Below, one piece after another: positions 9,709 through 63,047 of a stretch of 64,000 bases of DNA; position 1 is the first letter of the stretch; each line of letters starts with the position of its first letter. The notes under the pieces were generated by a model that saw only the letters and a program-made list of their open reading frames with translations, did not search any database and was not told the origin of the DNA. The stretch lies in assembly GCA_000004985.1 (NCBI GenBank), contig GG738929.1. One strand, 5' to 3'. The position numbers were made by a program, and so were the translations under genes. The stretch comes from Naegleria gruberi (taxonomy: Eukaryota).

Positions 9709-10159
9709 TTTTTTTAAAAATGACTAGATGGGTGACAGACATTTTTGATCTTATGCTGACTCACAGTCTTATGTGTTAATGGTGGTGAGGTATTAATAAT
9801 AATGCATTGAATAAAGTGTTTCTCTGATTATAATTTTTATTAGAAAGTTCCATATTTGGTTCATTGAGGTAAAAATATTGTAATAGAAAAATAATTTGAA
9901 TCATTATCTATTATCCTTATATTTTGAAATTGAATTTCAATAATTAATATTTCACTTTCCTCTTTTTATTTGAGATGCGTAACGTTAAATAATGATATTA
10001 TTCAGTAGTTAAGCAATTTATTGGTGATCTGAATTCAACCACATACATGGATATTGCTAAAATCGATTAAATATAACTTAACCGAGCTAATATTTCAATT
10101 ATTATTAGAAAACTCGCAATTTCCTTACATAGCTCTCAATGTAAGGAACATCGATAATG

Positions 10160-10627
10160 TCAGGTTGTTCTAAGGAGTGGTAAATTTTTAGATTTCATAT
10201 CTGGTTTGATGTCATTTATAATATCCAAGTGAAGTCGAGTAATTGCACTCAGCAAGTAGAGGGAGAGATTCATTCGAGTTTGATAATCAAACTTTTCGAA
10301 TATGGAACTAGTATTAAGGGTGAAATTGAACTTTTTTGTAATTATTTCACTCCATGTTGATGCAGAGCTAGAAAATTCTACTCGGAAATAAGGAGGAATG
10401 AGATTTGCAAGCTCTTTTTGATAAATAAATTGAAAACATTGATATTCTCTTTCTAAATCTCTTGGAAGTTTTAAAATATATAATTCGGAATGATTTGTTT
10501 CTTGTTGTAGTGAAATTTCATACAAATTTACTTCTAAACATTTAAGAATTGTTATTTGACAATTTGTTGTATTGTTTGATGCTAAATTATTGTTATTCCA
10601 CTTCCTATTGATTTTCAATGATTTCAT
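10160..10627 (-). CDS. Hypothetical 155-aa protein
   Basis: This is a clean ORF with a real ATG at 10627 and a coding-like composition. I recognise no family. It starts only 5 nt downstream of the stop codon of the FG-GAP gene on the same strand. Confidence 0.4.
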   Translation of the reverse strand: MKSLKINRKWNNNNLASNNTTNCQITILKCLEVNLYEISLQQETNHSELYILKLPRDLEREYQCFQFIYQKELANLIPPYFRVEFSSSASTWSEIITKKFNFTLNTSSIFEKFDYQTRMNLSLYLLSAITRLHLDIINDIKPDMKSKNLPLLRTT

Positions 10628-10632
10628 TTTTT

Positions 10633-12825
10633 TTATTTTTGGAAACGATCAATCTTTCTGTGATAGAATGGATCGTTCAATTGAATGTATGTTGAAAGGT
10701 ACAATAATCCAACAATAACGAAAAGTGAGACAATAAGGAAGGTCAAAACTGACATGCCGGTGTGAACTCTAGTAATATAAGCATAAATGCCTTGCTTGGT
10801 GGAAACAACAATATCCAAAATATTATCACCATTAATGTCAACAAGTTGAATTGGAGAAATAGAAGGATGAGGGAGTTCAATAATTTGTTGAACGTTACCA
10901 AACAAATCAACAATAGTAATTCTCTTTTCACCAACAGCAACAACGAATGAGTGAGTTTCAAACTTTCTGAGTGGGAAAGCAACAATTTCAGGGAAAAATG
11001 ATTCAGTTTCAGCACCAGATTCAACCAAAACTCTTTCTCTTCTGAAAGAGGATGGTGTCATGACTTGCCATTTAACTCTGAATTTTGGTTCACCATTAAC
11101 GCTATTCTTTCTATCAAAAGTAATTGCAGTAACCAAACCAGTTGATGTCAAATAAACTAAATCTCTAGCTCTGTGTTGTGGCTTTTGTTCAGCAGAATAA
11201 TGTTCAATAATAGCTGGTGTGACTACATCCATTTGCTCATCCTCGTATTCTTCATCATCATCAAAGCTTTGTCTCTCTTGTTGTTCATTTGACATTAAGA
11301 ATGGAATGGAGAATTGTTCAATGAAAGAAGATGGATGAAGTTTACAGACAGACTTTCTGAAAAGAGTATCATATGGATTTGGAGCTCCACTTTCAACTCT
11401 GGCCTTACAAACTTGAGCTTCAGCAGCATCAATCATACCATCAAAGTTAATATCTTGATAGTAGGTGTTTTCCTTCAATGGTGAAAATTGAGTTAAAGTT
11501 CTACCGGTATACAAGTGAATAACTTGAATACCCTTTGAAAGATGGGCAACCATAACGTTTGGAATCTTTTCAAACTTCTTCATCAATTCAATATTCTTCT
11601 TCAATTTTTCATTGGTATCCTTAGTCTTAGTTGTAACAGTTTGAATGGTACTCTTAACCTTTTCTCCAATATCACCATAATCTTGTTTTTCAGCTCTTTC
11701 TTGAATCTTTGAAACCTTAGCTTTCTTTGTTGGTTGGAAATTGTCCAAAATAACAGAGGTATCATATGGGTGACGATAAACATGAGGTAAATGATGCATA
11801 ATCTTCTTCTTATATTCTCTCCATATAACTTCACCAGAGTCACTTAAATGTTGTTGAGCATTCAATTTGAAAGAATGTTGTTCATAAAATTCATTATCAT
11901 CCCAACTCTTAGCATTAGATTGATGCTTCCAACGAAGTTGACCTGTAGCTCCATCAAGACAGAAATATGTGATTTGAGTAGCTGTTTCTTCAGTTCTCTT
12001 GGTGCTATCATTATCAAACATTTCTTGAGGTTTACGGAAACCAATAATAACCATTCCTTCATCATTTTCATGAACTCTCCAAGGATAAACAGCAACAAAA
12101 ACTTCAAATGGTTTGAAATCATTTCTCAAATCTTCCATTTCCACATCAGTAAGCTTCATTTCAGAAACAACATGTTGCAAAAGATCAGATTCCCATTGTA
12201 AATTCAAATCAGGATCAAGACATAAAACTTTCCAATTTGAAAGAACAGCAGCAATTCTCTTTGTTCCTCTTTGTCCTTTCTTTTTCTTTACTTTAATATG
12301 ACCATGTCCGAGACCAATAATCGAATGATGAACAGTTCCTTTGTTTTTGTCCTTTTCATTAACATCAAATGATTTCTATTATTTGTAAAAATAAATAATA
12401 TTAATATTAAATAAAATTGATCATCATCATTCCTAAAAAACATACTTCTTCAGTGATTGGATTAAACATGTCTTGATGAACCAAAAGAGAGGATGAAATA
12501 GTTTTTAAGGAAACTATAGAAATTCTACCATTATCATTACTCGTTATTAAATCCTTTGATCCATCTCCATCAATATCAGTGATAATAGGCTTTGGACTAA
12601 AACGATCAAACAAGTATCAAATTTGATGACGACGATTATATTTCGGAAGGCTTTAAAAAAAACTTACACTAAATCCACTTGTCCTGTTTTTAATAAAAGT
12701 GGTTGTTGATTTGTTGTTTGTGAGAAAAAGAAAGCCTTTTCAATGGTTACACTTCCCTCTTGGTTCAAAGCAACCACCAAGAGAAGGCAAACCAATGCGA
12801 ACATTGCAAAGTCACGTTTTCGCAT
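10633..12825 (-). CDS. FG-GAP repeat-containing single-pass membrane protein (ITFG1/linkin-like architecture), 3 exons: join(12825..12668, 12596..12446, 12375..10633)
   Basis: There is an N-terminal signal peptide MRKRDFAMFALVCLLLVVAL. FG-GAP/calcium-binding-like motifs TDIDGDGSKDLI and DINGDNILDIVVS are present. A C-terminal TM SVLTFLIVSLFVIVGLLYL is followed by a short tail. The introns are GTAAGT...TTTTAG (71 nt) and GTATGT...AATAG (70 nt). Phases were checked and are in frame. Confidence 0.6.
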
Positions 12826-24331: not shown

Positions 24332-24533
24332 TTTTTTTTTATTGTTTATTTCCAGATAACACACAACATTCTCGACATTCTTTGATGTTCCAATTTCAAT
24401 TTGATTGTAAACAAGAGTAAAAAAATTGAAGATGAGTTGAAAATCTATTTGTGTTAATATAGATTGAAGTAAATAATGGTGATTTAAAAAACACTAATAT
24501 TAGAATGAATATTAAAAAACCAATTCAAAGAAA

Positions 24534-26507
24534 ATGTACTCACTGCACCAACACACTACTCAAGATGAATGTAATGATCATTCACATTCTGATACCTTCT
24601 TCGATGATAATAGTACTATTGAGTCATTGCTCAATGATGATTTGTTTTCACACCTTGCTGGCAATACTCAAGCACCATCAGAGAGTGGAGTTTCTAATTC
24701 TTGTCATGATTTTGAAGATGATAACGATGATAATGAACGAGTTGACAATGAAGAAGAAAGTATGCCACCTTGTAAACACCTAACACCAGATGCAAAGAAG
24801 GAGAAGGAGGAATTTGTTGCTAGAAAATTAACAGAAGAGGAAATTCCAATGGAAAGAACAATATTTTGCAGTAATTGTACTTCATGCACTTCATGTGTCT
24901 GTCAGAAGAATAAGCTTCCCTGTACAGTTAAATGTGCATGTCAAATTAAATGTAAAAATTTGAGAAAAGAAGTACTAACTGATAATTGGATTCAACACAA
25001 AACCTTACCAGAAAGAAATATTGAAAGTCCACTAATAGTTGGTCCAATTAATGTGAAACAAGATTTATCCATAAAGGAATCATTTCAATTGATTTGGACA
25101 CCTGATATTATAGAACACATTTATGAGAGAACCAATAGAAAGTTTGAATATTGGCAAATTTACTCAGATGAGATTAAAATGTATAAACTTGCAATTAAAG
25201 ACAAATCCAAAAAGAGAAAGAGAATGAACAATAACACTAATCCATCTGAATCCATTGAATTATGTTCAGATATCGAATATGATCAGCCAGTTAGAACTCC
25301 AAAAAAGATATTTCCTGATTTTGATGAATATTTCACAAAATGTAAAACTGAAAACAAAATATTAGAAGAAAAGTTTTCAAGAAAGCAAATTACTAACTTT
25401 TTAAATATTTCTATATTGATGAATACTACATGTAAAATTCCAAACATTTGCAATTATTGGACAATATCAGGACTTGATGCAGCCCTTTATGGAAATGGAA
25501 TATTCAGATATTTAATGAGTAGATCAATGTTTAATCAAATCAAGCAGAATTTAACATGTGACTCTGATTTTTTGGAAATGAGAGTGAATGAGAATTCTAG
25601 AAAATTTTGGAAATGTTTCAAAGAAATTTCAGTGGATGAAATAATTGCTCCTTTCAAGGGAAAGATTAGTGACAAACAGTTTCTCCCCACCAAACCTCAC
25701 AATTATGGATTGAAATATTATACACTATCTGATTGGGTTGGGTATGTTTATGCATTTTGGTTGTCAAAACACGAACATAAATCAGATAAAATTGTTTTAG
25801 ATCTTATTGAGCATATTGATGATCCACAGAATCATATTTTAGGTGTCGACAATTATTATGGATCATTAAATTTAGCAAATCAATTATCAGAAAAAGAATG
25901 GAATTATGTCATGACAGTGAGGGCTAATAGACCAACATTTCTTTTCAGTGATGGATTGTTGAAACATCTCAAAAGAAGCAAAACTAAAAAGTGGACTCAA
26001 GCTGTCCATAAAAACAATCACATGGCTGCTGTTTCTCTCAATGATCACAAAAAGGTTAATTTTTTAACTAATTTGGGAAGTAATCAAACATTTCATTCAC
26101 AACCACTTGTTCAGAAATATGAAAGAATGGGTTGTGTTGAATTGTCTGGAATCAATCTTTACAAAATGGATGTTCCCTTCGAGGTAAATAATTGGAAAAT
26201 CATCCATCTCTTTGAAGTTCTACGTATAGCTCTCGTTAATCAATATTTAATTTATAAGCATGTTAGAAACTTAACTAATTTGACCCTCAATGAATATTTG
26301 CAAGAGGCAACATTATCTCATTGTGAATCCACCAACCCAAATTTCAAAAGAACAATACATTTCCCATCCAGTGTCAAAACTCGTGGACTTTGTGAGCATT
26401 GTAAGAATTTTCATTCTCTCACTCCTATCAAATGTCCTGCTTGTAATTCCTACCTTCATCAAAAGTGTTTTGTAGATTTTCACCTTAAAAAACACATTTA
26501 TTATTAA
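24534..26507 (+). CDS. piggyBac-transposase-derived protein (DDE_Tnp_1_7) with an N-terminal CXC/tesmin-like Cys-rich region and a C-terminal Cys-rich zinc-finger tail; probably a domesticated or solo transposase gene
   Basis: The piggyBac catalytic-core signatures are present: SVDEIIAPFKGKISDKQFLPTKPHNYGLKYY and VDNYYGSLNLANQL...VMTVRANRP. The N-terminal segment CSNCTSCTSCVCQKNKLPCTVKCACQIKC is Cys-rich. The C-terminal segment CEHCKNFHSLTPIKCPACNSYLHQKC is also Cys-rich. I found no TTAA-flanked CCCTAGAAAG-type terminal inverted repeats in the flanks. Confidence 0.7.
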   Translation: MYSLHQHTTQDECNDHSHSDTFFDDNSTIESLLNDDLFSHLAGNTQAPSESGVSNSCHDFEDDNDDNERVDNEEESMPPCKHLTPDAKKEKEEFVARKLTEEEIPMERTIFCSNCTSCTSCVCQKNKLPCTVKCACQIKCKNLRKEVLTDNWIQHKTLPERNIESPLIVGPINVKQDLSIKESFQLIWTPDIIEHIYERTNRKFEYWQIYSDEIKMYKLAIKDKSKKRKRMNNNTNPSESIELCSDIEYDQPVRTPKKIFPDFDEYFTKCKTENKILEEKFSRKQITNFLNISILMNTTCKIPNICNYWTISGLDAALYGNGIFRYLMSRSMFNQIKQNLTCDSDFLEMRVNENSRKFWKCFKEISVDEIIAPFKGKISDKQFLPTKPHNYGLKYYTLSDWVGYVYAFWLSKHEHKSDKIVLDLIEHIDDPQNHILGVDNYYGSLNLANQLSEKEWNYVMTVRANRPTFLFSDGLLKHLKRSKTKKWTQAVHKNNHMAAVSLNDHKKVNFLTNLGSNQTFHSQPLVQKYERMGCVELSGINLYKMDVPFEVNNWKIIHLFEVLRIALVNQYLIYKHVRNLTNLTLNEYLQEATLSHCESTNPNFKRTIHFPSSVKTRGLCEHCKNFHSLTPIKCPACNSYLHQKCFVDFHLKKHIYY

Positions 26508-26725
26508 ACAATTAAATCAAAGATATTTAGATTTCAATAAAGTATTGAATCTTAATACTTTTTGCCATCAAAACCTTCAGTTTAAGCGACTAGAAAATAG
26601 GGGGAACCTTTGCCAATTTTTCAATACCAAACAAAGGGATAAAAACAGTTTAATAAGTATTAAGTTATTTAATAAAATACTTTTAAGCAATCAAGATCTT
26701 GTTTTCAATCTATGACTAAGAAAAA

Positions 26726-26843
26726 GACTACAGCACCACAGGTTCCCAAGTTGTCTCCAACCTCAGTACTGATGTGGCTCGACGATGCTTAACTTCTCAA
26801 ATCGGACGGGATGAGGTGCATGAATCGTGATATGGCCGTAGCC
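26726..26843 (-). rRNA. 5S ribosomal RNA gene (copy 1), 118 nt, followed by a T-run Pol III terminator
   Basis: The reverse complement reads GGCTACGGCCATATCACGATTCATGCACCTCATCCCGTCCGATTTGAGAAGTTAAGCATCGTCGAGCCACATCAGTACTGAGGTTGGAGACAACTTGGGAACCTGTGGTGCTGTAGTC followed by TTTTTC. The universal 5S blocks are present: CTACGGCCATA, CATCCCGTCCGAT, GAAGTTAAGCA, AGTACT, GGAGAC, TGGGAA and GGTGCTGTAG. The two ends pair to form helix I. Confidence 0.8.
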
Positions 26844-26899
26844 ATTTCCTATCATTAAATCTTAATTTTGAATAAGAATATTACTGATTTTTAAATCTA

Positions 26900-29904: not shown

Positions 29905-29958
29905 ATTACAAGATCAGTAAATAAATATCTCAGTTTAGTTTCTGAATAAAAAGTTGAA

Positions 29959-30051
29959 ACCCAGTGTCAGGACTTGAACCTGAATTATGTGATTTGGACT
30001 TGTTGTTTAAGTATCGTCAGATTCACATGTCTTTCATTAGACTACACAGGG
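29959..30051 (-). tRNA. tRNA-like element, best fit tRNA-Gln(CUG) with a 23-nt intron after position 37; possible pseudogene
   Basis: A manual fold gives the acceptor CCCTGTG/CACTGGG (6 of 7), U8, and D-stem GTCT/AGAC. The anticodon stem is TGTGA/TCACA with loop ATCTGA|intron|A. The T-arm TCAGG-TTCAAGT-CCTGA is perfect. The D-loop is short and lacks GG, which is why I suspect a pseudogene. Confidence 0.3.
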
Positions 30052-30579
30052 TTGAGTGGAATTGTTTTTTGGGTTTGATGTGTTGGCTGTGTTCAAGGAT
30101 TATGAATCAGATTTTTGGTTTCAATGAATTAACATTTTCCAAATTTACCTTTCAAAGTTTGTTAAAAATCGGATTTTTGTGGCTTAATAATATCAGAGTT
30201 GTTTCTTAAGGAATGAAGAAATGTTGTTTACCCCCGATTATTTCGTAATTTTCTGACAACCATACGCCCCTAAATGAAAAGATAGATTTCTGCACCTCCT
30301 TCACCACCTCAAACTATAATTCATGTCTCTTCCCCATCGTTTTCGGTTGTTTTAAAAAAAAGACAAAAAATAACTTGAAACCTCACTCCTTACCATTATT
30401 AAGCATTTTTCATCATTATCACACCATCAAAAATGTTGAACACCCACTAGTAATGTTCTTCTACATGGTTTTATGTAGAAACCATCTAAAATTCATCTTC
30501 ACTAGCCCAAAAAATTCATTTCCTCTGTTGAAGAATATTTTCTGGTTTCTTTTTTTCTGTTCGGATTACAATTAAAAAA

Positions 30580-32671
30580 ATGTCTACAAATGCTACCAGG
30601 GCACAACTGTTTAATCCTTTTGGTGTTTTTGTTTCATCAAATAATGAAGTTTACATTGCTGATTTTTGTAATCATGCAGTTAGAAAAATATTAGAAAATG
30701 GAAATATTGTGACAATTGCAGGAAATGGAACTGCTGGATTCAGTGGTGATAATGGTCCTGCAACAAATGCACAATTTAATTATCCTTCTAGTGTTTTTGT
30801 TTCATCAAATAATGAAGTTTGCATTGCTGATTTACATAATCATAGAATTAGAAAAATATTAGAAAATGGAAGTATTATAACAATTGCAGGAAATGGAACT
30901 GTATGGATTCAGTGGTGATAATGGTCCTGCAACAAATGCACAACTGTATAGGCCTTCTACTGTTTTTGTTTCATCAACTAATGAAGTTTATATTGCTGAT
31001 TATAGCATAATCAAAGAATTAGAAAAATATTGGAAAATGGAAATATTGTGACAATTGCAGGAAATGGAACTTATGGATTCAGTGGTGATAATGGGCTTGC
31101 AACAAATGCACAATTGTATAATCCTTGTACTGTTTTTGTTTCATCAAATAATGAAGTTTATATTGCTGATCATACAATCAAAGAATTAGAAAAATATTAG
31201 AAAATGGAAATATTATAACAATTGCAGGAAATGGAACTGATGGATTCAGTGGTGATAATGGTCCTGCAACAAATGCACAATTGTATTATCCTTCTAGTGT
31301 TTTTGTTTCATTAACTAATGAAGTTTATATTGCTGATCAACATAATCACAGAATTAGAAAAATATTGGAAAATGGAAATATTATAACAATTGCTGGAAAT
31401 GGAACTTATGGATTCAGTGGTGATAATGGTCCTGCAACAAATGCACAACTGAATCAGTCCTAATAGTGTTTTTGTTTCATCAAATAATGAGGTTTATATT
31501 GCTGATCAACAGTAATCAAAGAATTAGAAAAATATTAGAAAATGGAAATATTGTGACAATTGCAGGAAATGGAACTGCTGGATTCAGCGGTGATTCACCT
31601 TTTAATATTATAATGTATCCTCATATTGGAAATAAGTTATTAACTGGAAATAGTAGCTTGTACTCCAAAATAGAATATAATTTGAAAAAACATTCAAGAG
31701 ATCAATTATTTGGATTTCAAATTTATGGATTCATTCCACTCATTGAAAAAATTTCACCAAAATTTAGTAATATTTTGAAGAATGAAAAGATGCTTTGTTT
31801 GATGAGTTCATCACAACAAGAAATTATTCAAAAATTAATTGATTCTTTGCTGTATGATAAGAACAAGGTAAAGTTTAGCAAAGAAGAAGTGTTGGATGTT
31901 TTATTCATTTTGGGTTTATTTAAGAATGGTGAATTTATTGATTTGAAAAGATCATTGACAAGTGAATTTGTGAACTCATTCACATTAGAAAATCTTACTT
32001 TCAAATGGGAAACAATTGAAAATTTACTCAAAACTTGCAAAGAGGAATTTGGTATTCAAAATTACATTCTCGATCAATTGAATAACCATTGCATTGAATA
32101 TGCTGCTGTTCAAATGCAAACAAAAGAAGGAAACACTTTATTATCGACTCTTCCAATAATTATGAGAAATGCTACTGCCATATTTCCAAAAATGATCATT
32201 ACTGAACCAACTGCAATTAATATTGAGGAAACAATTGAAAATGAACCACAAACAATTGAATCATTATATGGTGATATGAAAACAAGTGATGTAAAAATCA
32301 AAATGGGACAAAACAAATACTTATATTGTCACAAAACTGTATTGAGTTCATCAAGTACATTGTTTAATGCATTATTTGACAGTGGATCTTGTTTCAGTGA
32401 TTTGAGTGATGATGGAATATTCACACCTGACGAATCAGAAGATTTGGAATTATTGGAAATTGTGATCAAATATTGTTATAGAATTTCAATTGACAAAATT
32501 GATGCTGTTAAAATTATTGGATTACTTGATATGGCAATGAAACATGAAATTCAATATCTAATCAATTATTGCAAGAATAACTTTACTCTATCCATTGATA
32601 ATTACTTTGCTATGCTTGAAGTTTGTGAAAATTTTTTGAATGCAATTTTTGAGAGAGATTCTCAAGTTTAG
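30580..32671 (+). CDS. NHL-repeat protein with C-terminal BTB/POZ domain; the NHL repeat array carries frame disruptions (possible pseudogene or assembly error)
   Basis: The NHL units are YPSSVFVSSNNEVYIADxxNHRIRKILENGNIVTIAGNGTAGFSGDNGPATNAQ. The C-terminal BTB is DVKIKMGQNKYLYCHKTVLSSSSTLFNALFDSG. The ORFs 30580..30918, 31281..31463 and 31466..32671 lie in different frames. Confidence 0.5.
30600..31600 (+). repeat. Tandem array of about six 177–180-bp units (each encoding one NHL repeat), 85–95% identical, several with 1–2-nt indels
   Basis: The unit recurs directly in the sequence: aatgcacaaNtgtatNatccttctNgtgtttttgtttcatcaaataatgaagtttatattgctgat...agaattagaaaaatattagaaaatggaaatattgtgacaattgcaggaaatggaactgctggattcagtggtgataatggtcctgcaacaa. 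Confidence 0.85.
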
Positions 32672-35418: not shown

Positions 35419-37542
35419 TCAGAAAATGTTATTTTGTTGTTGAACTTTGAAAGCATAAAGCCATGTTTTAAATTCATTCGTATTTTCCATTCTTGAAAAG
35501 GTATCTCTGAGATTTGCCAATATTTCACCTTCAAATACTAAAATCAAATCCTGAATTGTTTGTACAAAAGAATTTGATTCAGTGGATAATTCTGTTTCAT
35601 TTTGGTCTTGAATTCGTTTCCTTAATATGAAAAAGTTCTTTCTGCAAGTGCTTGAAATGTTCAATTCGAAAGTAGAGTTTTGATTCAAATAAACTTGTGA
35701 AATTTCATCCATCAACTCTATTGAAAGTTTCTTCTTTGATTTTAATTTCAATTCCAATAAAAAAGTGAAAAAGTTGTAATTCTCTAATGAAAGTTCCTTC
35801 ACACAATATTCTCTAATCAAATCTCTAAAATCCTGATGTTTCAGATAACTCTCCAGTTCACCTTCAATTTGTTGAGATTTGGAACTTTGAATTTTATCAA
35901 TCAAATATTTAATCACACAAGATCCACCACTCACTAGACAAAACAAGATAAACATGATTAATCTGAAAAAGTAAATAACATGATGATCTGAAATTGCTGA
36001 AATGATAATGAGAATTATAATGTTAAAACTGAGAAGTATCATATCTACTCTGATTAAGAATGGATCATCGAAGAATAACATGTATCTCAATCCTTTCTCT
36101 TTCCATTTCTTTATGTTTAGTATAAAATCAATGGATATTACTGACAATCCTAATATACATGCAATTCCAATAGATATTCCAGATAAAATGTTAAATACTA
36201 TATTTGGTGCCAATTCAACTATATAATACATTGCTATATATGGAATGGATATTAAAATATGAAGAAATAATGGAAAAATCAAAGTTATTACTATTCCAAG
36301 AATTATTCCACTTAATTTCAATAATGTTGAATTGATATTTTTAGAAAGTGAAAATAATCTATATAAATTATGTAAAAAATATAATCTTAAATAGGTAAAG
36401 AAATGAACTAGAATACAGAAATTCAATACAATTCCAGCAATTGCTAATGAAAGATTGAGAACTAACCAAAACATGTCAGAAGTCGCTATTTCAATAATAA
36501 TAATTGTTAGAGGTAGGTAAGGTGTGATAAGTCGTCGTTTTACAGAAGGTTGCCTTAATGCACCTGTGAAAAATAGAAAGATAAAGTGAATGATGACTAT
36601 TATAGTTTGAGGAATCAACCAATATTCGATATCATTCAAAACTATTTCAGAACAATATTCGAAATGGCAATTATGACAATTTGATGGAAGGTAGAGTGAT
36701 TCTAATTGTGAAATTGAAGAGTTTGAGTAAAATCCATAAGTTGATTGTATTTCCTGTTTGATAATATCTTGATTCGTCTTGAAATGTTATTAGAAACAAT
36801 ATTTAAGAAAACCTACTTTGGATAAAATTTTGAAATTATTCCCACAGCTTTTCAAACATTCCAAATCATAATCACTAACCATTTCTCCTCCATATTTCAT
36901 TATTCGAAATGAATTGAATAAAGGTGGTTCATAATCGAAAGATGTTAAAAGTGATGATGAATTCACACAAGATGGTTGACTAACTGAAATACTTAAATTC
37001 AATCCAGTTGCATTTTCATCCACTTGATAAACAGAATATGGATAAAGATCAATAAAGTTAAAGTCAGAAGTTTCGTATAAATGACCAACAGGTGTTCTCT
37101 TTCCACTTCCTCTATGATAATTTCTAAACATTTCCAAAAACAAATTCCTCGATGTAATGATCATATCAAAATCTTCTAAAATGTGAAATCTCTGCCCATA
37201 TCCCTTTACGAAACCATAAAAATTAACAATTCTTTTTTGATTAAAGTCTGAATTAAGTTTCGTCCAAAGTGTTGACATTTTTAGTGATGCTGGAATAAAT
37301 GCAATATCGAGTAAATTGTGTTGTTTCATTAATGTTGTTACATCTTTTGATGAAGTTAAATTGTAATTTTCTGACACATTTTTCCACACAACAGCTGTCA
37401 AGTAATCATTAACATAAACAAGAGATAGTGTCGAATCCAATTGATCAAATGTTTTACTGACAAATGAATGACCATTCACAACACAACAACAAACACAATA
37501 CAGAAACAATGTAAGCAACAATACCCACTTTAATTTAGCCAT
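35419..37542 (-). CDS. Receptor-like protein: signal peptide plus about 250-aa Cys-containing extracellular domain (37542..36817), joined to a seven-TM region with a C-terminal RGS domain (36777..35419); the join needs a 39-nt intron or a 1-nt frameshift
   Basis: The signal peptide is MAKLKWVLLLTLFLYCVCCCVVNG. There are about 7 predicted TM helices. The RGS signature is FRDLIREYCVKELSLENYNFFTFLLELK. The downstream part has no in-frame ATG. Its open frame extends upstream to 36777 with no ATG, and it joins the upstream ORF in frame via AAG|GTAGGT...TTTCAAG|ACG (36816..36778). Confidence 0.5.
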
Positions 37543-37726
37543 TTTTTAATCGACGAAAGGTCAACATGAATATCGAGAATCAAAAGGCCACAAAAAGAAA
37601 TGTCCTTCTAAAAGGTTCTCGGGAGAAATCATCAACACCTTTCGATAAATTGGGATTACAGCTTTTATGGAGCATCAAATCAGAAGCAATCAAGATCTTG
37701 TTTTCAATCTATGACACTAAGAAAAA

Positions 37727-37844
37727 GACTACAGCACCACAGGTTCCCAAGTTGTCTCCAACCTCAGTACTGATGTGGCTCGACGATGCTTAACTTCTCA
37801 AATCGGACGGGATGAGGTGCATGAATCGTGATATGGCCGTAGCC
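37727..37844 (-). rRNA. 5S ribosomal RNA gene (copy 2), identical 118-nt body to copy 1 (not compared base by base), with a T-run terminator
   Basis: It has the same sequence blocks as copy 1. The conserved 3-prime flank (about 40 nt) differs only by a 2-nt insertion, and the 5-prime flank is unrelated. Confidence 0.8.
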
Positions 37845-38162
37845 ATTCGTACTTCCAACTTGTGTAATATAAACCGATTTGATTCTCCTGGGGTGAGGTA
37901 AATAATTCAATAATTTTCATTCTTAGTATAAAAACAACCATCAATTTCAAAATACTTAATCGCAAGGAAATGTTAGTAATGTTATTTGACATTCTGAGCT
38001 CCAGTTTCTCCAACAAGTAACAAGGATATTTGTCATCAAATAAGTTACCTGTTTAAAACTCCCATCTATGTTATCGGTTGTAATTGTTTACAATAATTAA
38101 AAACTTACAAATTGCTCGCTTAATAATCAAATTAAAACCTCAAAAAAAAACACTCAAAAACA

Positions 38163-42142: not shown

Positions 42143-43318
42143 TTATTCAATGCTAACAACCTTTGGACCATAACCAACAGTTGTGTGGATCAAATATCTC
42201 AATCCATCAGCATCAATCTTAACAGAAGTGGACTTCTTGAATGATTCAACCATTTCAGTATATTGCTTCATTTCAGTAACGAATGGTTCCTTAGAGAAGA
42301 ATTGTTCTTGATTTGATGGTGGGAAGAAAGCATGTAAAATAGCCAAAAACTTGTTAGTAACTTCCTTGTTAGGGAAGAAGAGAACAGCATTTGGACCAGC
42401 ATCAAAAGTATAAGCAACCTTCAAATTTTCAACACCATTTCCATCATCGAAAGCATTGAAATCCTTAACCAATTGAACAATTTGGTTAGAAGTTTCATTC
42501 ATATAATAAATAGCTGGTTCAGTATCAGCACAACAAGCGTGCATATTATCAGAATCATCCATAGTTAATGTAGCAAAAAGATTAAAATCTTTAGTCTTCA
42601 AAGCCTTATCCATTTCAATCATTCTTTGTGGAACAATTTCACTAGCTCTAACCTTCAATAATTTAGAAGTAATTACAGATTGTTGCATTCCTGATGTACT
42701 TGGAGTGTGTTTTTGTCTATCAGAAACAACACAAACAACAATATTAGTTTGCTTTGAGAAATCATCATGTTCATCCAAAACTTGAATAGCCTTACTTGTT
42801 TCATGATCGTGACCCTTTTCCCAAGCAACATATCCTCCGTACAATGATCTACAAGCACTACCACTTCCCAATCTTGCAATAATACTCAAATCAGATTTAA
42901 CTTCAAATAATTGACCCAAAGCAAAAACTAAACAACAATAACCAGAAGCACTTGATGCTAAACCAGCTGCTGTTGGGAAGTTATTGGTAGAATCAATATG
43001 AACATAAATTTCTTGATCCTTGTTTGGACGTTCAGTGTACCATTTAGCTGTAGCTGCTTTACGAATTTCTTGGAAAACTCTTTGAATACGTTTACTTCCT
43101 TGAACATCTTCCTTCTTTCCATTCAAAATTAATTCATCACAAGGAAATTCAGTACTAGCTTGAACAGTGGTAGTAGTCTTTAAATCATCTTGGTTAAGAG
43201 TAGCAGAGAGAGATGAATTTAATGGAATGTGTTCTGCTTCATTTTCCTTTCCCCAATATTTGATGACGGCAATATTAACAGGACTTGTACAAGTGAATTT
43301 AGGTGAAGTGAATGACAT
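42143..43318 (-). CDS. mvd: Diphosphomevalonate decarboxylase (mevalonate pyrophosphate decarboxylase)
   Basis: GHMP-kinase family motifs are present: NIAVIKYWGK, PTAAGLASSASGYCCLV, GSGSACRSL and AYTFDAGPNAVLF. It is a full-length 391-aa ORF with a real ATG. Confidence 0.9.
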   Translation of the reverse strand: MSFTSPKFTCTSPVNIAVIKYWGKENEAEHIPLNSSLSATLNQDDLKTTTTVQASTEFPCDELILNGKKEDVQGSKRIQRVFQEIRKAATAKWYTERPNKDQEIYVHIDSTNNFPTAAGLASSASGYCCLVFALGQLFEVKSDLSIIARLGSGSACRSLYGGYVAWEKGHDHETSKAIQVLDEHDDFSKQTNIVVCVVSDRQKHTPSTSGMQQSVITSKLLKVRASEIVPQRMIEMDKALKTKDFNLFATLTMDDSDNMHACCADTEPAIYYMNETSNQIVQLVKDFNAFDDGNGVENLKVAYTFDAGPNAVLFFPNKEVTNKFLAILHAFFPPSNQEQFFSKEPFVTEMKQYTEMVESFKKSTSVKIDADGLRYLIHTTVGYGPKVVSIE

Positions 43319-44972: not shown

Positions 44973-46552
44973 ATGAAGATCTCAAAACTTGTTAAGAATA
45001 CCAAGAATTTAATCTCAACAAATAATAGATGCTTCTCTACTTGTGTTAATAACAAGGGAAGCGTTATTGGATCTCCTGCTGAAATTCCTCTTTCTAGCTT
45101 CTACCCAGGAGCTCCTCATCTTCCAAAGGATATTGATGCTAAAGAAGAATCACTTGTTTTCCAAACACAAACATCAACTCTTCCAAACGGTTTGAACGTT
45201 GTTTCAACTGTAAGTAATAATAATAATAACAAGAAGAGAAGACTTATTCCGCGGTAATAACGATTTTTATTGGAAATTATGATGTCAATGACGACGATGT
45301 ATTTAATGATGAAAATTTAAAAAATTAATTTTAATAGGATTCTACTTCAAGAGGAGTTAGTGTTGTCAGTCTTTTTGTCAATGCTGGATCCCGTTTTGAA
45401 ACATATCGTACAAGCGGTGTTTCTCACTTTGTTGAAAAGTTCTTCTTCTCAAGCACAAACAATAGAAGTTTGTTGAGATTGACAAGCGAATTACAAAAGA
45501 CTGGTGCTAGTGTTAGCGCTCAAACTGGTCGTGAACATATTGTATATCAAGCTGAAGCTTTGCGTGAATCAGTTCCTCTTGTTGTGGAACTTATGGCAAA
45601 CTCTGTTTTGCAAGGTAGATTGCATCCATGGGATTTGGAACCAAAGGCTGAAGCTGTTAAACGTGATATTTCTGAATTCCAAAACAATGCTCAATTCGTT
45701 TTGAATGAAGCTCTCCATCATACTGCTTTCAATGGTGAAACTCTTGGTCGTTCACTCTTGTGTCCACCACACAATGTCTCAAAGATTGATACTGATATTG
45801 TTTTGTCTTACATGAACAATTTATATGTTGCTCCACGTATGACTTTGGTTGGTACTAACATTTCACACGAAGAACTCAAAGAATTAGCTAATGTTTTGTT
45901 CTCATCAATTCCATCACAAGTTTCTGAAAGACCAGAAGGTGAACATTTCACTTTTGAAAAGTCCGAATATGTTGGAGGTGACTTGCAAATTCACGAACAT
46001 TCTCATGCTGGTACTCAAGCTATTTTGGCTTATAAGGGACCATCTCTCACTTGTTCTAAACATGTAGCATATCTTGTTTTGTCTGAACTTTTGGGACAAA
46101 CTACCAACAAGTATACTGGATCTGTTAATCACAGTGCTTCCAGATTGGCCAAGTCTGTTAAGAATGTTGAATTTGGATCTTCATTTGTTTCATCATACTC
46201 TGATAATGGTTTGTTCGGAGTCTTCCTTGCTGGTAAGAATGCTAAGGAAGTTTCCTCAGCTGTTCAATCCACAGTTGCTGAATTGAGCTCTGTTCAATCT
46301 ACTTTGACTGCTAAAGCTCTTGAAGGTGCTAAGAATCACGCTTTGCTCAAGCTCTACAACTCTGTTTCATCAAGTGTTGGTTTGCACGAACACACTGCTA
46401 CTTATGGTGGTGTCCAACAAGTAGCTCAAGCTATTTCTTCTGTCAGTGCTGCTGATGTTATTGAAGTTGCTAAGACTTTGTTGCAATCTAAGCCAACTTT
46501 GGTTTCTTATGGTGATCTTAACGGAATGATCAAGACTAGAAACATTCAATAA
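44973..46552 (+). CDS. Mitochondrial M16-family non-catalytic subunit (cytochrome bc1 core protein 2 / MPP-alpha-like), 2 exons: join(44973..45209, 45338..46552)
   Basis: There is a mitochondrial presequence. The degenerate zinc motif is HFVEK rather than HxxEH. The C-terminal segment SYSDNGLFGVFLAG matches core-2 SYSDSGLFG. The 128-nt intron is GTAAGT...TTAATAG. A 50-N gap lies just upstream at 44674..44723. Confidence 0.75.
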
Positions 46553-46652
46553 TTCTTTTTTGTTATAGAAAAACCGGTGAAAAAAAGTCAAAAGGGAGGG
46601 TCCTTTTATAATACCCTTATATAAATTAAAAAAAATCAATTTCTAAAATAGT

Positions 46653-49600
46653 TTATTTAATTTCTAATATTCCAAGTTTGAGTTCAATATCTTGTCTTGA
46701 TAAAATACGTGCTTGATGAATAACAGTATATCTATTATTGGATGAAATTGGAATTCCTTGTGAGAGCATGATATCAGTAACTTCAATAACCTTATCAGTT
46801 GCATGTAAAATTGTCAATTCCAAATACTTGTTCATTAAATCTTCAATTGAAAAGATATCTTCATATTGTAATGAATCTTGATTTTCAAATAATGATTCAT
46901 CACTCATTAATTGTTGAAATAATAAACTAGTTTCAAAATAATCTGAAAAATCTCTACAATTATGAGTTAACAAGTATAATGTTAATAAATCTCTTCTTGT
47001 TTCTCTATTTCTCAAATTATAAAAACACCACAATGCAGTAATAAATTGTCTTCTATGACATGTCATTAAAATTCCATTCAAAGTTCCAACATTATCAAGT
47101 GGAATTAGAGATTTTTCAATTAATTGTTTAATTCTATTTTGAGATTTTCCTTTCAAAATAATTAAAGTAATATAATAATAAATTTCATCATTCTTTTCAA
47201 TATTATTTTCCTTATTTGTAATTATATTTAAAATATTATTAACATGATAAGTATCATCATTTGGTAAAGTTATCATTTCTAAACCTTTCAAATAACAAGT
47301 TGTAATTAAAGTTAGAAATTTTTGAACATTTTCATCAACTTTTGAATTTTTCCAATTTAAAACAGAATTAAAAATAGATTTTTGTAATTCTGGATTTTTT
47401 CTTAAATGAATATTTTGTAATTCATTAAATAAATTTAAAACAATATCCAAAGATGGAATTAAATTATAAACTTGATAAATTTCTTTAAATATAGAAACTG
47501 CTTTTGTAAAATAATTTTTATGTTGTAAATAAGATTTAATAATTAATCTAAAAGTTTCCAAATTTGGTTTTACCATATTTTGTTTTAATTGTAAATAAAA
47601 AAATTCAATTTTTTCTAAATTTTTTTCCTTTTCATAAATTTCAATTAAAATATTATAAGCATTAACATTTTTAGGATATAATCTAATTATATTATTACAA
47701 ATTTCAATTGTTTTTTCTATATTTATATTTAAATAATATTGTGCCATTAAATCATAAGTTTCTATATTTGGAAAACTTTCTAAAAATGAAGTCATTTCTT
47801 CAATTAGTAATTTAAATGATTTTGAATTATTTTGATTTAATAAATATAAAAGTAATAAATTACAAATTTCAGTATTTAAAATTATTGAATCATTATAATT
47901 TTCAATAAATTTTTTAATTTCATCTTGTTTTTCAAAAATTAATTGTCCTTTTAAGTAAATTCTTTTTGTATTTGTATTATTTTCTAAATTTGGTAATTTA
48001 ATTAAAACATCTTGATAAAATGAAAATATTTTGTTTACATGTTTTAAATATTTTGATTCATTTAAGTGACTAGTTTCCATTTCTATAATTGTTTCAAATA
48101 TTAAATTAAATAAATTTGTTAAAAATTCAATTTTTTCATTTGTAAAATTTTTTAAATTATTAATTAAAAAATTAAAAATATTTGCTGCTATAAATGGTTT
48201 ATCTAATTTGGTACATAAAATTTCAATTACATTTTTAATAATTTCCTTTTCATTATTTAATTTTTCCAATTCAATAAAATTTAAATTTAAAATTAAATTT
48301 TCAATTAAATTATTTTCATTATTTTCATTTAAATATTTTAATTTAAATTCATTTGCAAATTCCAAATCTTTTTGTGTTGAAGAATTTTGAATTAATTTTT
48401 CATAAATTAAATTTAAAGTTTCATTTTCAATTTTTAAATTTAATTTTTTTAAATTTCCAAAAATTTCTAATGCAACATCTAAATTATTTATATTTTTAAT
48501 TAATTGATTTAAAATTTTACTTTTTTGTTCATTAGTTAAATTTGTTTGATTTTTAAAATTTCTATAAATAAATGATAAATTATTTCCAAATATAGTTGAT
48601 ATATTATTAATTAATCTATTTAAATATTCATTATCATATTCATTAATATTATTTAAATAATTATTAATACAATAATTAAAATAATTTAAAATTAATTGAT
48701 TACTATTTCCATCTTTTAATATATTTGCTTTATATGGTAATATTTCTATTCTTAATTTTGTACAAATTTCAAATAAATTTAATGATGACATGTCATTTGC
48801 CATAAATTTTAAAGCTAATTTAAATGAAATTGTAAAATTTGATTTAATTTTAGAAAATAATTTTCTAATCATTTCAATATTTCCATTTTTATCATAAAAA
48901 GTTAATAATAAAGAAAATTCTTCATCATTTAAATTATCTAAATTTGGTAAAATAAATTCATCAATTAAATTTTCATTTCCATTAAATTCAATTAATTTAA
49001 TTAAAAAAGATTTAAAATTTTTATAATTTTTAAAATTTAAAATTAATTCATTTAAATTTTTAGAATTTAAAATAAATAATTCTTTTGTTTTTTCATTAAT
49101 TAAATTATTATTTGTATTTATAAATTTAAATAATTCATCAACATTTAAATTTTTTTTAATCATATTTTCAATTACTAAATTAATTAAATCAATTTCAAAA
49201 TTATTTTTCTTTTTTAAAAATTTTGAATTTAATAATTCAATTGCTTCATTAATTCCATCATATTTAATTAAAGTTTCAATTGATTTTTTATAAATTTCAT
49301 TTTTTTTATCAATATTTCCAATATTATCAATTATTCTATTTATGGAATTTAATATACTTTTATTATAATCAATTAAATTTATATTATTTTCATTTTTATT
49401 CATTATTAATATTGTATTAAATAATTTTAAATAAATTTCACTTGTTTTATTTGGAATATTATTAAAATATAATAATCCATTTTGTAATGATTCCTTTTTT
49501 AGTATATTTTCTAATTCAATTTCATATGAAAATGTATTTTCATCTTTTTCAATATATTTTAATATTATATTTTGAATATTTTCATAAATTTCATTATAAT

Positions 49601-50153
49601 TTATATTTTCTAATTTATTAATAGGAGTATTAATAGTATTTATTGTATTATTTGAATTAATTGTTATATTTGAATTTATATTTAAATTATTATTGATATT
49701 ATTAGTATTACTGTTATTGAAAGTTGTTGAATAATTTCTAATAGAAAATAATCTTGTTGTTGTTGTTGTTGATAATACTTCGGAAGATGATGTTGATTTA
49801 AAACTAGTTAAAGATTTCTTGTTCAATTGATTATTTAAACAATCATTATGATAATATTGTTGTTGTTGATAATGATGAATTAAACGAACAATAAGATTAC
49901 TAGTAGTATTGTTGTTGTGATACACACGATGATGATTTAATAATTTAGCCTTTTGCATCATTTTTTTCAATTTTTCAAAAAAACATGAAGCATAATTAAA
50001 ATCAAGCCTTGACAAGTAAATGTGCATAATAATACTACTATCAAAAACAGAGTATATTAGTCTTAACATATCATCAACAAATACTTGGAAGAAAAAGTCA
50101 ATTTGATTGAAGCCTTTATCAAAGGCTAAAAATTCATTAAAAAAAATGAACAT
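46653..50153 (-). CDS. Very AT-rich helical-repeat protein, probably PPR/TPR-like (organellar RNA-binding type), about 1100 aa
   Basis: It is a long ORF dominated by N/I/K/L, with recurring 35-aa-like helical units (for example YNILIEIYEKEKNLEKIEFFYLQLKQNMVKPNLETFRLIIKSYL). The start is uncertain: the ATG at 50153 would overlap the NSUN gene start head-to-head, and an internal MM at 49961 is an alternative. Confidence 0.45.
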   Translation of the reverse strand: MFIFFNEFLAFDKGFNQIDFFFQVFVDDMLRLIYSVFDSSIIMHIYLSRLDFNYASCFFEKLKKMMQKAKLLNHHRVYHNNNTTSNLIVRLIHHYQQQQYYHNDCLNNQLNKKSLTSFKSTSSSEVLSTTTTTRLFSIRNYSTTFNNSNTNNINNNLNINSNITINSNNTINTINTPINKLENINYNEIYENIQNIILKYIEKDENTFSYEIELENILKKESLQNGLLYFNNIPNKTSEIYLKLFNTILIMNKNENNINLIDYNKSILNSINRIIDNIGNIDKKNEIYKKSIETLIKYDGINEAIELLNSKFLKKKNNFEIDLINLVIENMIKKNLNVDELFKFINTNNNLINEKTKELFILNSKNLNELILNFKNYKNFKSFLIKLIEFNGNENLIDEFILPNLDNLNDEEFSLLLTFYDKNGNIEMIRKLFSKIKSNFTISFKLALKFMANDMSSLNLFEICTKLRIEILPYKANILKDGNSNQLILNYFNYCINNYLNNINEYDNEYLNRLINNISTIFGNNLSFIYRNFKNQTNLTNEQKSKILNQLIKNINNLDVALEIFGNLKKLNLKIENETLNLIYEKLIQNSSTQKDLEFANEFKLKYLNENNENNLIENLILNLNFIELEKLNNEKEIIKNVIEILCTKLDKPFIAANIFNFLINNLKNFTNEKIEFLTNLFNLIFETIIEMETSHLNESKYLKHVNKIFSFYQDVLIKLPNLENNTNTKRIYLKGQLIFEKQDEIKKFIENYNDSIILNTEICNLLLLYLLNQNNSKSFKLLIEEMTSFLESFPNIETYDLMAQYYLNINIEKTIEICNNIIRLYPKNVNAYNILIEIYEKEKNLEKIEFFYLQLKQNMVKPNLETFRLIIKSYLQHKNYFTKAVSIFKEIYQVYNLIPSLDIVLNLFNELQNIHLRKNPELQKSIFNSVLNWKNSKVDENVQKFLTLITTCYLKGLEMITLPNDDTYHVNNILNIITNKENNIEKNDEIYYYITLIILKGKSQNRIKQLIEKSLIPLDNVGTLNGILMTCHRRQFITALWCFYNLRNRETRRDLLTLYLLTHNCRDFSDYFETSLLFQQLMSDESLFENQDSLQYEDIFSIEDLMNKYLELTILHATDKVIEVTDIMLSQGIPISSNNRYTVIHQARILSRQDIELKLGILEIK

Positions 50154-52022
50154 TTCAACCTTGAAGGCTTTTTCTGTTCGGAGATTAAATCATCACCATC
50201 ATCAATTCTATAATATTATCAATCCATATTCATATCATCAACAACAACAACAACAATTATTTTCAACATGTTTATTTACATTCAATAAGGATAATTTAAA
50301 TGAAAAGATTTTTAAAAATTCTAAAAAGCCTTCTTTCCAACAATCAAAACAAAGACATCATTCTAATAATACAAAACATTCTAATAATAATTCTAATAAT
50401 AATAACAAATCATCATCATATCATATAATAATAAAAAGAATGAAAAATATCCAAAAGAAGAAATTCTTGCAAAATTAGAACAAATTAAACAATTTGAAGA
50501 AAATCTTCAACAAGAATCAACATTAAATAATTTTCCATTTGTAGAAAGACATACTATATCAATATTATATCATTATCATCAAATATTAATTCAACAATCA
50601 AATTATCCATTAGATTTATTTATTTCAAATTATTTAAAAAAAAATAATATTGGAAAAAATAACAAACATTTAATTATTTCTTCATGTTATGAAATTGAAA
50701 AATTATATTTATTATTAGATTATTTAATTAAAAATTATGATTTTAAATTAATTGAATCTAAATTATTAATTTCATTAGATCAATATATAAATAGAATTAA
50801 TCAAATTAAAATTAAACAATTAGGTCCAAATTCAAATTTATTACCAAAATCAGTAACTTTTGTTGAAGAAAATAAGAAAACTGTTTTACATTGGAGATTA
50901 ATTTATTTTATTTATATTGATAGATTTTATACTAAAAATTTTATTAATTCTATAAATGATTTATATTCTCAATTTGGTAATATTCCTAAAAATATATTAA
51001 CTAGTTGTCCTTCTCAATTATTTGATTTATTTAAAGAAGATTATAATTTACAATATGCTATTGAATTATCTCAAATTAATTTAACTGAAGCTCCTGTTTT
51101 TGCTCGTTTAAATGATTTGAAATTTAATTCTCTTTCTAATAATAGTAATATTATTTCTAATAATAATAATAGTAGTAATAATACCAGTAGTAATAATAGT
51201 GAAAATAATGATAATTCTAATTCTTCTAATATTTCTAATAACAATTCAAATGAAAAGATAATATTAAAAAAGTTTATTAATAGATTATCAAATAATTATT
51301 CTGAAATTGTTGGACAAATATTACCAAGTGAAAATTCTAAATTTGGATTTAAATTTGAAAAAAAAGCAGAATTTAGACAATGGAAAGAATATAAAGAAGG
51401 ATTATTTGATATTCAAGATGAATCATCTCAATTAATAGTTCAAGAATTAATTAGAAATATTGTAATGAAAGAAATTAAAACATTAAAACCATTAATTTTA
51501 GATTATTGTTGTGGAACTGGTGGTAAAACATTTGCATTTGCAGGTTGTTTAAATGGAAAGGGACAAATTTATATGCATGATGTACGTTCTGAAAAATTAT
51601 TTCCCGAATTAAAAAGAAGAGCACAAAGATTAGGAATTGAAAATATTCAACCCATTGAACATGATCATTCACATTGGGATAAATTGAAAGATAAAATGAA
51701 TTTAGTATTGTGTGATGTTCCATGTACAGGAACAGGTACTTTGAGAAGAAATGTTGAAACCAAGTACAAGATTAATTATCAATGGTTACAAGAATTAACT
51801 GAAAAACAACGTGATATTATTCAAAAAGCAATTCCATTCGTTAAACAAGATGGTTATTTCCTCTATTCTACATGTTCAATTTTGAAAAAGGAAAATGAAA
51901 AACAATTGGAATGGATTTTGAAAAAGTACAAGAATTTCCAACTCGTTCACACTGTAAAGATTTTACCAACCATTGATGGTTCAGATGGAATGTATGGTGT
52001 TTTATTAAAGAGAATAAATTAA
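50146..52022 (+). CDS. NOL1/NOP2/Sun-family RNA (cytosine-5)-methyltransferase (short NSUN4-like form), with a frame discontinuity near 50400..50480
   Basis: Motif I is LDYCCGTGGKT, motif IV is CDVPCTGTGTLRRN, and motif VI is LYSTCSI. A long open frame runs from about 50406 to 52022. The track lists only its C-terminal 301 codons, from the first ATG at 51117. A separate ORF (ATG 50146, MNISTLKAFSVRRLNHHHH, presequence-like) ends at 50478 in another frame. Confidence 0.55.
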
Positions 52023-52123
52023 TTTATTGATATATTATTAAATGATAACTTGACTTGTTACTTTCAAGTTATTCTTCTAAATATGAAATTCTATGATAAA
52101 TAAAATGAATGAGATGAATGAAA

Positions 52124-54570: not shown

Positions 54571-54615
54571 TTTTTTTTTAAAAATGTTTTTTCAACTTCA
54601 ACGTTTTGATTTGTT

Positions 54616-54628
54616 TTTTGGCGGGAAA
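54616..54628. promoter_or_regulatory. Consensus E2F site TTTGGCGGGAAA about 45 bp upstream of the MCM7 start
   Basis: There is an exact TTTSGCGC core in an otherwise AT-rich promoter. MCM genes are canonical E2F targets. Confidence 0.5.
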
Positions 54629-54721
54629 TTGAACCATCACATCATTAACAAGACCACAGTTTAAAAAAGATGAAAACGTTTTAAAAATAAATTTATATTT
54701 TTATTATTATTATTATTATAA

Positions 54722-56897: not shown

Positions 56898-57344
56898 ATT
56901 TTGTAATTTGTTGATCGATTATTATTATATTGATATTTGTTTAAAAATGTTATTAAAGTTGATGTAATGATTCGGAATAGATTGTTGTATTGTATTTATT
57001 AAATGATGGTGTTGATGATAAAAATATGTTTAAACTACTATTATATACTACTATCACAATTGTATTAGAATACTACAATAAATAACAATATAGTATTTGA
57101 TAGCGGTGGTGGTGATGATGATTATTGTTATGAAATTTTTTATTGATAAAATTTTTTTATGGTTTGACATTTGATTAGAGACTATGAAAATGTTCGATTC
57201 AGACCATTATCTCTCTTTTTCAATATTTTTAATTATTATTATTTGAATAGAGTTTCTTGTCTATTATATCAATAATATTATGATAATTCCTTCTAATTAA
57301 TAATAATTTAATTATTATTATTCAATTAAAATAATTAAATTAAA

Positions 57345-58145
57345 TTATTTATATAAAGGAGGAGATAATAAACCATCTGTACTATGAAAATCATAAACAT
57401 GATCATTTTTAAAATGTCCTAATTTTTCAAAAGGTTTATCTGATTTACTATTAATAGTAATTTCTAAACCATTTTCATTTGCATTTGAATAAACAGTTCT
57501 AAATCTTTCTTCTAATTGTTGTAAAGGTACTTTTAATTTAGCACCTGTTCTTAAATTAGATCTATTAATAGGATCAATTCTTTCTATATAAATTTGACTT
57601 AATTTTTTAGGTGATTTTGTAAATAAATTTCTAGCCTTGATTGATGGAAATGTATGTGGTGGATCATTTGGATATGGAATATAATAATGTTCTATTTGTT
57701 TTTTAATATTATTATTATTATTATTGGAATTAGAATTATTAGAATTATTAGAATTATTACTGATGGTTTTTCTGTATTGTTCTACATCTGATGGTGGTAG
57801 AAAATAATGTGGTCTCTCTCCAAAATAAGGTGATGTTAATACTTTCCTTATTTGTTGTTGTTGTTGATTATTTACATTTGATGATGTTATTGATGATGAT
57901 GATAAATTATTATTATTATTATTATTGGATGATTGTAGTGATGGTATTGAATTAAATGTTATTGATTTTCTATTATTATTAATTGTTTGATAATATCGGA
58001 ATCCACCTGTTATAATACTAATAATAAATATTAATATTTGTGTCAGTGATGATGAAGATGATAACTTTCCAAATAATGACAATTCACTCATCTTTTGTTG
58101 TGATGACATTAAACTATTAAATAATTGATTCAATTTTTCAATCAT
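57345..58145 (-). CDS. Hypothetical N/S/Q-rich membrane protein
   Basis: It is a 266-aa ORF with one TM near the N-terminus (LTQILIFIISIITGGF), poly-N tracts and an unrecognised C-terminal domain. Confidence 0.35.
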   Translation of the reverse strand: MIEKLNQLFNSLMSSQQKMSELSLFGKLSSSSSLTQILIFIISIITGGFRYYQTINNNRKSITFNSIPSLQSSNNNNNNNLSSSSITSSNVNNQQQQQIRKVLTSPYFGERPHYFLPPSDVEQYRKTISNNSNNSNNSNSNNNNNNIKKQIEHYYIPYPNDPPHTFPSIKARNLFTKSPKKLSQIYIERIDPINRSNLRTGAKLKVPLQQLEERFRTVYSNANENGLEITINSKSDKPFEKLGHFKNDHVYDFHSTDGLLSPPLYK

Positions 58146-58198
58146 TTTTTTTAACTTGACTTTTTATTAATAATATAATAATACTTTTACATAATGTT

Positions 58199-63023: not shown

Positions 63024-63047
63024 TTGCCAAAAATCAAAAGCAAGAAA

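Follow-up and report, generated by a model that had tools for sequence, protein, structure and literature searches.

A pair of identical 5S rRNA genes 11 kb apart in Naegleria gruberi, very probably members of a large dispersed chromosomal family

In filamentous fungi and fission yeast, the literature on birth-and-death evolution describes tens to hundreds of unlinked 5S genes, which have unrelated flanks and each of which carries an internal promoter. A different arrangement is found in Dictyostelium discoideum, where the 5S gene is located on the extrachromosomal rDNA palindrome. 5S sequence can also be associated with mobile DNA: the retroelements SINE3 and Cassandra TRIM harbour promoters or fragments derived from 5S. 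Among free-living amoebae, Acanthamoeba castellanii has approximately 100 dispersed 5S copies across most of its chromosomes (Genome Res 2022, PMC9528979). For Naegleria, two sets of observations are available: the rDNA plasmid is described as carrying single copies of the 18S, 5.8S and 28S genes (PMC5805870), and Feng et al. 2012 (PLoS One 7:e36878, PMC3369914) list 279 putative 5S genes of N. gruberi in their Table S1, while scoring the species as 'tandem arrangement: yes' in their Table 1.

Here, a stretch of 64,000 nucleotides of N. gruberi DNA (hereafter the window) was analysed. It contains two full-length 5S rRNA genes, both on the minus strand: copy A at 26725..26843 and copy B at 37726..37844. 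A preliminary description of the window, made from its letters, had called a canonical 118-nt 5S rRNA on the reverse complement and had proposed a search with Rfam RF00001 on both strands. This search returned two minus-strand matches of 100.3 bits each (E 1e-20) against a curated gathering threshold of 38 bits, with both copies covering model positions 1-120 of 120; hence, the identification stands, although the Rfam length of each gene is 119 nt. The two gene bodies are 100% identical over their 119 nt, and a direct-repeat search of the window recovered them within a 132-nt exact repeat with a spacing of 11,001 bp; the repeat is not fortuitous. When the gapped alignment (blastn) is considered, the similarity extends over 164 positions at 98.8% identity, the sole difference being one 2-nt GT indel. 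The whole shared block is thus 162 nt long in copy A (26685..26846, minus strand), comprising AAT, the 5S gene and 40 nt downstream, and 164 nt long in copy B (37684..37847, minus strand), comprising AAT, the 5S gene and 42 nt downstream with the extra GT. The first four bases of the downstream part complete a T5 terminator (26721..26725 in copy A and 37722..37726 in copy B, both read from the sequence on the minus strand), whose first T is the last gene base according to Rfam; a further 36 nt (A) or 38 nt (B) then follow. Upstream of the shared block, the sequences of the two copies are unrelated.

These results agree closely with what had been noticed initially, namely a direct repeat of roughly 160 bp with sharp boundaries, 11 kb apart, in which the ends of the 5S RNA pair as helix I, a T5 terminator follows in both copies, about 40 nt of the 3′ flank are conserved with a 2-nt indel, and the 5′ flanks are unrelated. 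The block coordinates first given were correct nearly to the base, with the low end actually lying two bases further out. The term "near-identical" that was applied to the copies is appropriate for the block, given the GT indel, but understates the gene bodies, which are fully identical.

To place the pair among its relatives, we used three further Naegleria 5S genes for which flanks are available: one from an environmental contig (L002), one from N. lovaniensis (L005) and one from a Logan contig (L006). The environmental contig was the only one returned by a 21-mer scan of JGI metagenomes and comes from another Naegleria. The other two were obtained by a search with concatenated 5S translations, which was aimed at spurious ORFs lying over 5S genes. 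A scan of viral contigs for 5S copies found none. On the N. lovaniensis sequence (PYSW02000026.1), the annotated 'hypothetical protein C9374_006095' (Kelch-like, 10001-10933) overlaps the 5S gene at 10102-10220(-), and the gene model is probably misannotated in part.

By analogy with known polymerase III type 1 genes, we infer that each copy in the window would be a self-contained RNA polymerase III unit, consisting of box A, a box C-like element and the T5 terminator. Box A of copy A (26780..26794, minus strand; 5S positions 50-64, AGTTAAGCATCGTCG) is an exact match to the consensus used by Feng et al. (PMC3369914), and its equivalent in copy B lies at 37781-37795. The box C-like element (26747..26764, minus strand, in copy A; 5S positions 80-97, GAGGTTGGAGACAACTTG) has two mismatches to the 18-nt consensus, with its equivalent in copy B at 37748-37765. 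The intermediate-element consensus finds 10 matches in the 5S sequence and is too loose to be informative. An A/T-rich, TATA-like stretch approximately 20-30 nt upstream and the AT immediately before the first base would also be part of the unit: the dinucleotide is invariant at -2/-1 in all five aligned Naegleria copies (A, B and the three further genes), and the region from -10 to -30 is A/T-rich by eye in copies A and B and on the environmental contig, although these three are not alignable there. Given that the promoter is mostly internal, such a gene could in principle function at whatever chromosomal position it occupies. Among the polymerase III factors of N. gruberi, Feng et al. found TFIIIB and TFIIIC and no homologue of TFIIIA (PMC3369914).

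At the level of RNA structure, a consensus fold with 39 pairs, in keeping with the three-way junction of 5S RNA, was obtained over four Naegleria 5S sequences. Two of these pairs, 68-107 and 69-106, are kept through double changes, the helix reading CCAC/GTGG in N. gruberi and on the environmental contig versus CTGC/GCAG in N. lovaniensis and on the Logan contig. Double compensatory changes within one helix support the presence of a constrained, functional RNA.

Both genes of the window were already catalogued in 2012. Table S1 of Feng et al. (PMC3369914) lists scaffold_85:152605-152721, which corresponds to copy A, and 163606-163722, which corresponds to copy B. The spacing of this pair is 11,001 bp, as in the window, and the coordinates coincide if the window represents the last 64,000 bases of the 189,881-bp scaffold_85. 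Under this fit, the first base of the gene is the T that Feng et al. named as the transcript start. The present genes, their internal control region and the upstream TATA-like box are thus the same as those described in that work. The 3′ flank common to both copies, their TC variant and the transposon context, all described below, do not appear there.

We then analysed all 279 rows of Table S1. With entries at least 110 nt long counted as full-length, the table holds 264 such genes on 113 scaffolds. No two neighbours are closer than 1,104 bp. Nevertheless, close neighbours are more frequent than random placement in 41 Mb would give: 44 spacings below 12 kb were observed versus approximately 20 expected, and 21 below 3 kb versus approximately 5 expected. 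This excess fits frequent local duplication. The 5S family of N. gruberi is therefore dispersed with loose local clusters, in which a pair 11 kb apart is typical, and it is very probable that copies A and B are two members of this large chromosomal family. Accordingly, the initial impression that these might be "single-copy" chromosomal 5S genes has to be abandoned. Since no spacing falls below 1.1 kb and the genes are spread over 113 scaffolds, there is no classical tandem array despite the published label, with which the coordinates given in the same paper do not agree; in this respect, the present reading goes beyond the literature. Copies A and B themselves are separated by 11,001 bp that include protein-coding genes and a tRNA gene, and the preliminary description was correct in setting a tandem arrangement aside.

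How does this arrangement relate to that of the other rRNA genes? An Rfam search of the 64-kb window gave no match to SSU or LSU rRNA, and the 5S copies do lie outside any rDNA array, as had been suggested. Given that the large rRNA genes of Naegleria are located on a multicopy extrachromosomal plasmid, which leaves 5S as the rRNA genes of the chromosomes, a chromosomal 5S is the expected state. Hence, the "notable organisational difference" that was proposed initially with Dictyostelium as the frame of reference does not hold. The frame itself is also inappropriate, as the ORF for diphosphomevalonate decarboxylase (MVD, 42146-43318) is 100% identical to the N. gruberi protein, compared with 89% for N. 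fowleri, 76% for Willaertia magna and 46-48% for dictyostelids, which rules out a dictyostelid origin. Furthermore, the gene order cofilin-ATP10-MVD is kept in Willaertia. The main value of the present analysis is thus the correct annotation and taxon, with the supposed contrast to Dictyostelium removed.

The comparison with the described systems can nevertheless be made precise. D. discoideum resembles Naegleria in keeping its large rRNA genes on extrachromosomal elements; in Naegleria, however, the 5S genes are chromosomal and the plasmid is described with 18S, 5.8S and 28S. The dispersed 5S genes of fungi have unrelated flanks, whereas the pair in the window keeps an identical 3′ flank, which is a mark of very recent copying. 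A. castellanii is also a free-living amoeba with single 5S genes scattered among protein-coding genes, but it belongs to the unrelated Amoebozoa, and no extrachromosomal circular rDNA was detected in it (PMC9528979).

The shared 3′ flank beyond the T run was considered separately. In copy A it occupies 26685..26720 (minus strand) and contains a 10-nt palindrome, CAAGATCTTG; in copy B it occupies 37684-37721 (minus strand) and is the same except for the GT indel. It was not found elsewhere in the window at up to 3 mismatches, and the 3′ flanks of the three further Naegleria genes are unrelated and show no similarity to it. Its predicted fold is not better than that of shuffled sequences (z -1.3 and -0.2). 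A structured RNA or conserved element in the 3′ flank can therefore be ruled out, and the flank is best regarded as a mark of shared descent.

Within the gene, both copies carry TC at 5S positions 21-22, while the environmental, N. lovaniensis and Logan sequences all carry GA. With TC, the G-C pair at 21-57 becomes a U·C mismatch, marked by Rfam as non-canonical. In Table S1, both window copies have a similarity of 0.733, compared with 0.75 for the majority class (PMC3369914). Copies A and B could thus be slightly impaired minority variants. The identical 3′ flank together with the shared derived TC variant shows that copies A and B are sister copies of this minority variant and points to a recent common origin. 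The pair is a clean example of very recent copying with sharp edges and, in combination with the full genome, could help to clarify the dispersal of 5S genes where the remaining rRNA genes reside on a plasmid.

The surroundings of copy A bear on its origin as well. An ORF of 657 aa at 24534..26507 on the plus strand encodes a piggyBac-type transposase (Pfam DDE_Tnp_1_7, E 1.6e-33), and is arranged tail to tail with copy A, 217 nt separating the two 3′ ends, in keeping with the approximately 220 bp downstream of a piggyBac-derived gene given initially. The protein shares 45% identity with its N. lovaniensis homologue and 39% with that of N. fowleri, and its N-terminal, Cys-rich, CxC-like segment is conserved in both. 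The first two catalytic Asp columns are conserved. The conserved GGVD motif, the last column of which we take to be the third catalytic Asp of piggyBac transposases, reads GCVE in the window and GCVD in N. lovaniensis; thus, from the aligned residues, the third catalytic Asp appears to be replaced by Glu.

A comparison of the 169-bp region upstream of this ORF with the 392-bp region downstream of it revealed an inverted repeat with 21-nt arms matching at 19 of 21 positions. The left arm (24481..24501, plus strand, GATTTAAAAAACACTAATATT) is preceded by TAATGGT; the right arm (26877..26897, GATTTAAAAATCAGTAATATT on the minus strand) is followed by TAATGTT on the plus strand. The 21-nt termini of the candidate element can be written as GATTTAAAAAWCASTAATATT. 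Among 300 Markov shuffles, none gave a repeat of this quality, and among 300 real-sequence controls two did. TTAA is found in both arms at an identical offset (GAT-TTAA-AAAAC...). The 7-mers that border the arms on their outer sides agree at 6 of 7 positions, for which the chance is about 0.003. Since the arms bracket the transposase ORF and copy A together, copy A may lie inside a 2.4-kb transposon. In piggyBac elements, the termini usually start with CC and a duplication of 7 bp would be atypical. The candidate termini in N. gruberi are without this usual start, and their best flanking duplication is the 6/7 7-mer. The homologue in N. lovaniensis, on the other hand, has canonical ends, consisting of TTAA followed by CCTTT..., and a 30-nt inverted repeat. 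This apparently intact element (PYSW02000039.1, 9746-12512) reads TTAA-CCTTTACGCC...GGCGGAAGGG-TTAA, and its insertion site is palindromic (TTTCC-TTAA-GGAAA). The homologues in N. lovaniensis and N. fowleri sit among different genes.

Four alternatives to a simple duplication of functional genes have to be weighed against this evidence. That a single 5S gene was placed twice during assembly is extremely improbable: the draft assembly does contain a 4.8-kb N gap further along the window, but copies A and B have distinct, unique flanks on both sides, differ by the 2-nt indel and are separated by real genes and a tRNA gene. A recent local duplication at the DNA level of a segment of about 160 bp, or an equivalent non-reciprocal copying event, to a site 11 kb away in the same orientation would instead give rise to two such genes. 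We infer this route, the most likely one, from the shared orientation, the small separation and the over-representation of close pairs across the genome, all of which favour it, and it is given about an even chance. The preliminary description had also offered retroposition. In such a scheme, a polymerase III transcript reading through the T5 terminator would be reverse-transcribed and inserted, and the internal promoter would leave the resulting copy transcribable. At its 5′ edge the shared block begins where the RNA starts, as expected of an RNA-mediated copy: only 3 nt precede the mature 5′ end, and two of them are invariant among the Naegleria copies in any case; the upstream flanks are wholly unrelated; and AAAA follows the block in copy A. 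However, no target-site duplication or flanking direct repeat was found at either block, copy B has no A-rich tail, and the block ends approximately 36-38 nt past the T5 terminator, where there is no second T run. With no reverse-transcriptase element seen near either copy and only two copies to compare, we regard RNA-mediated copying as unlikely, and retroposition, as originally put forward, finds no support in a target-site duplication or poly(A) tail.

It is very unlikely that copy A represents the cargo of a 2.4-kb piggyBac-like element (24481-26897) and that such elements spread 5S genes. The inverted repeat, rare in controls, brackets exactly the transposase ORF and copy A, with the equal TTAA offset and the 6/7 outer 7-mers on the same side of the argument; the N. 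lovaniensis homologue has textbook piggyBac ends, and piggyBac elements are annotated in Naegleria (PMC6125883 Table 3). On the other hand, this is a single, unreplicated instance: no inverted repeats bracket copy B, and no 5S gene is present at the homologous piggyBac loci of N. lovaniensis and N. fowleri. The absence of the CC start, the atypical 7-bp duplication and the apparent Glu in place of the third catalytic Asp also speak against carriage; moreover, it is equally conceivable that the 5S block was inserted later into an element already in place, and a low-copy transposon cannot explain some 264 copies. Like SINE3 and Cassandra, copy A shows 5S sequence physically associated with a mobile element, but it is a complete 5S gene between apparent DNA-transposon termini and is known from one instance only. 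If replicated, carriage would be of moderate interest for mobile-element research. Lastly, copies A and B might be silent or decaying variants, i.e., pseudogenes in the making, given that TC disrupts a helix position at which three other Naegleria 5S sequences form a G-C pair and that their Table S1 similarity is below that of the majority class. We consider this quite unlikely, as both genes are full-length at 100 bits with box A and terminator intact, copy A is identical to copy B with no further decay, and one U·C mismatch does not exceed what is normal for a 5S RNA.

The ATG at 37542, which lies 183 nt downstream of copy B, starts a gene encoding a protein with a signal peptide, seven transmembrane segments and an RGS-like domain (35419..37542, minus strand). 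Two ORFs, 37542-36790 and 36639-35419, form its two exons and are joined by a 64-nt GT..AG intron, as read from the sequence. The placement of copy B upstream of a 7TM-RGS gene was thus described correctly, with the qualification that the Pfam RGS match is marginal (23.2 bits versus a cut-off of 23.9, E 9.8e-5). No 5S gene is present in the syntenic MVD region of Willaertia, where synteny is lost before copy B is reached, so that Willaertia offers no clean empty site for comparison. Three ORFs beside the 5S genes gave no match in exact-protein look-ups.

Between the two 5S copies and on the same strand, a third polymerase III gene encodes a tRNA (29958-30052; Rfam, 43.2 bits). Its intron measures 23 nt, and it is followed at a distance of 7 nt by a T5 run. 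ARAGORN, when introns are allowed, assigns it as Trp(CCA) with the intron at an unusual position, whereas an intron at the usual 37/38 position would make it Gln(CUG). Its D loop is atypical in having a single G. Further along, at 30500-31600, six tandem copies of a 168-nt unit encode the repeated peptide RKILENGNIVTIAGNGT.GFSGD; they lie upstream of, and run into, an ORF with a BTB domain.

At approximately 46,600, the composition of the window changes in a step, with coding GC falling from 34-39% (GC3 0.21-0.30) to 16-30% (GC3 0.03-0.13). The tail (46550-64000) contains long AAT/Asn runs together with ordinary genes, including those for MCM7, a NOL1/NOP2 methyltransferase, an S10 carboxypeptidase and a PPR-like protein; its AT- and Asn-rich character may be a source of the Dictyostelium impression. 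A chimeric scaffold or Dictyostelium contamination was considered for this part (46.6-64 kb) and ruled out, since the MCM7 ORF is closest to Willaertia magna (71%) and a 1166-aa ORF beside an M16 peptidase gene is the counterpart of the neighbour of the M16 gene in Willaertia. Its genes are heterolobosean and syntenic with Willaertia, so that contamination and a misjoin are both excluded. A run of N about 4.8 kb long marks an assembly gap at 58257-63023, and the three ORFs of approximately 1,600 aa called over this run are artefacts produced by the Ns. Finally, a 1.3-kb contig labelled as metagenomic (ENA ERZ929261, run ERR1078381, PRJEB11402) encodes a protein that is 100% identical to N. gruberi MVD; thus, the sample contains N. 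gruberi or a very close strain.
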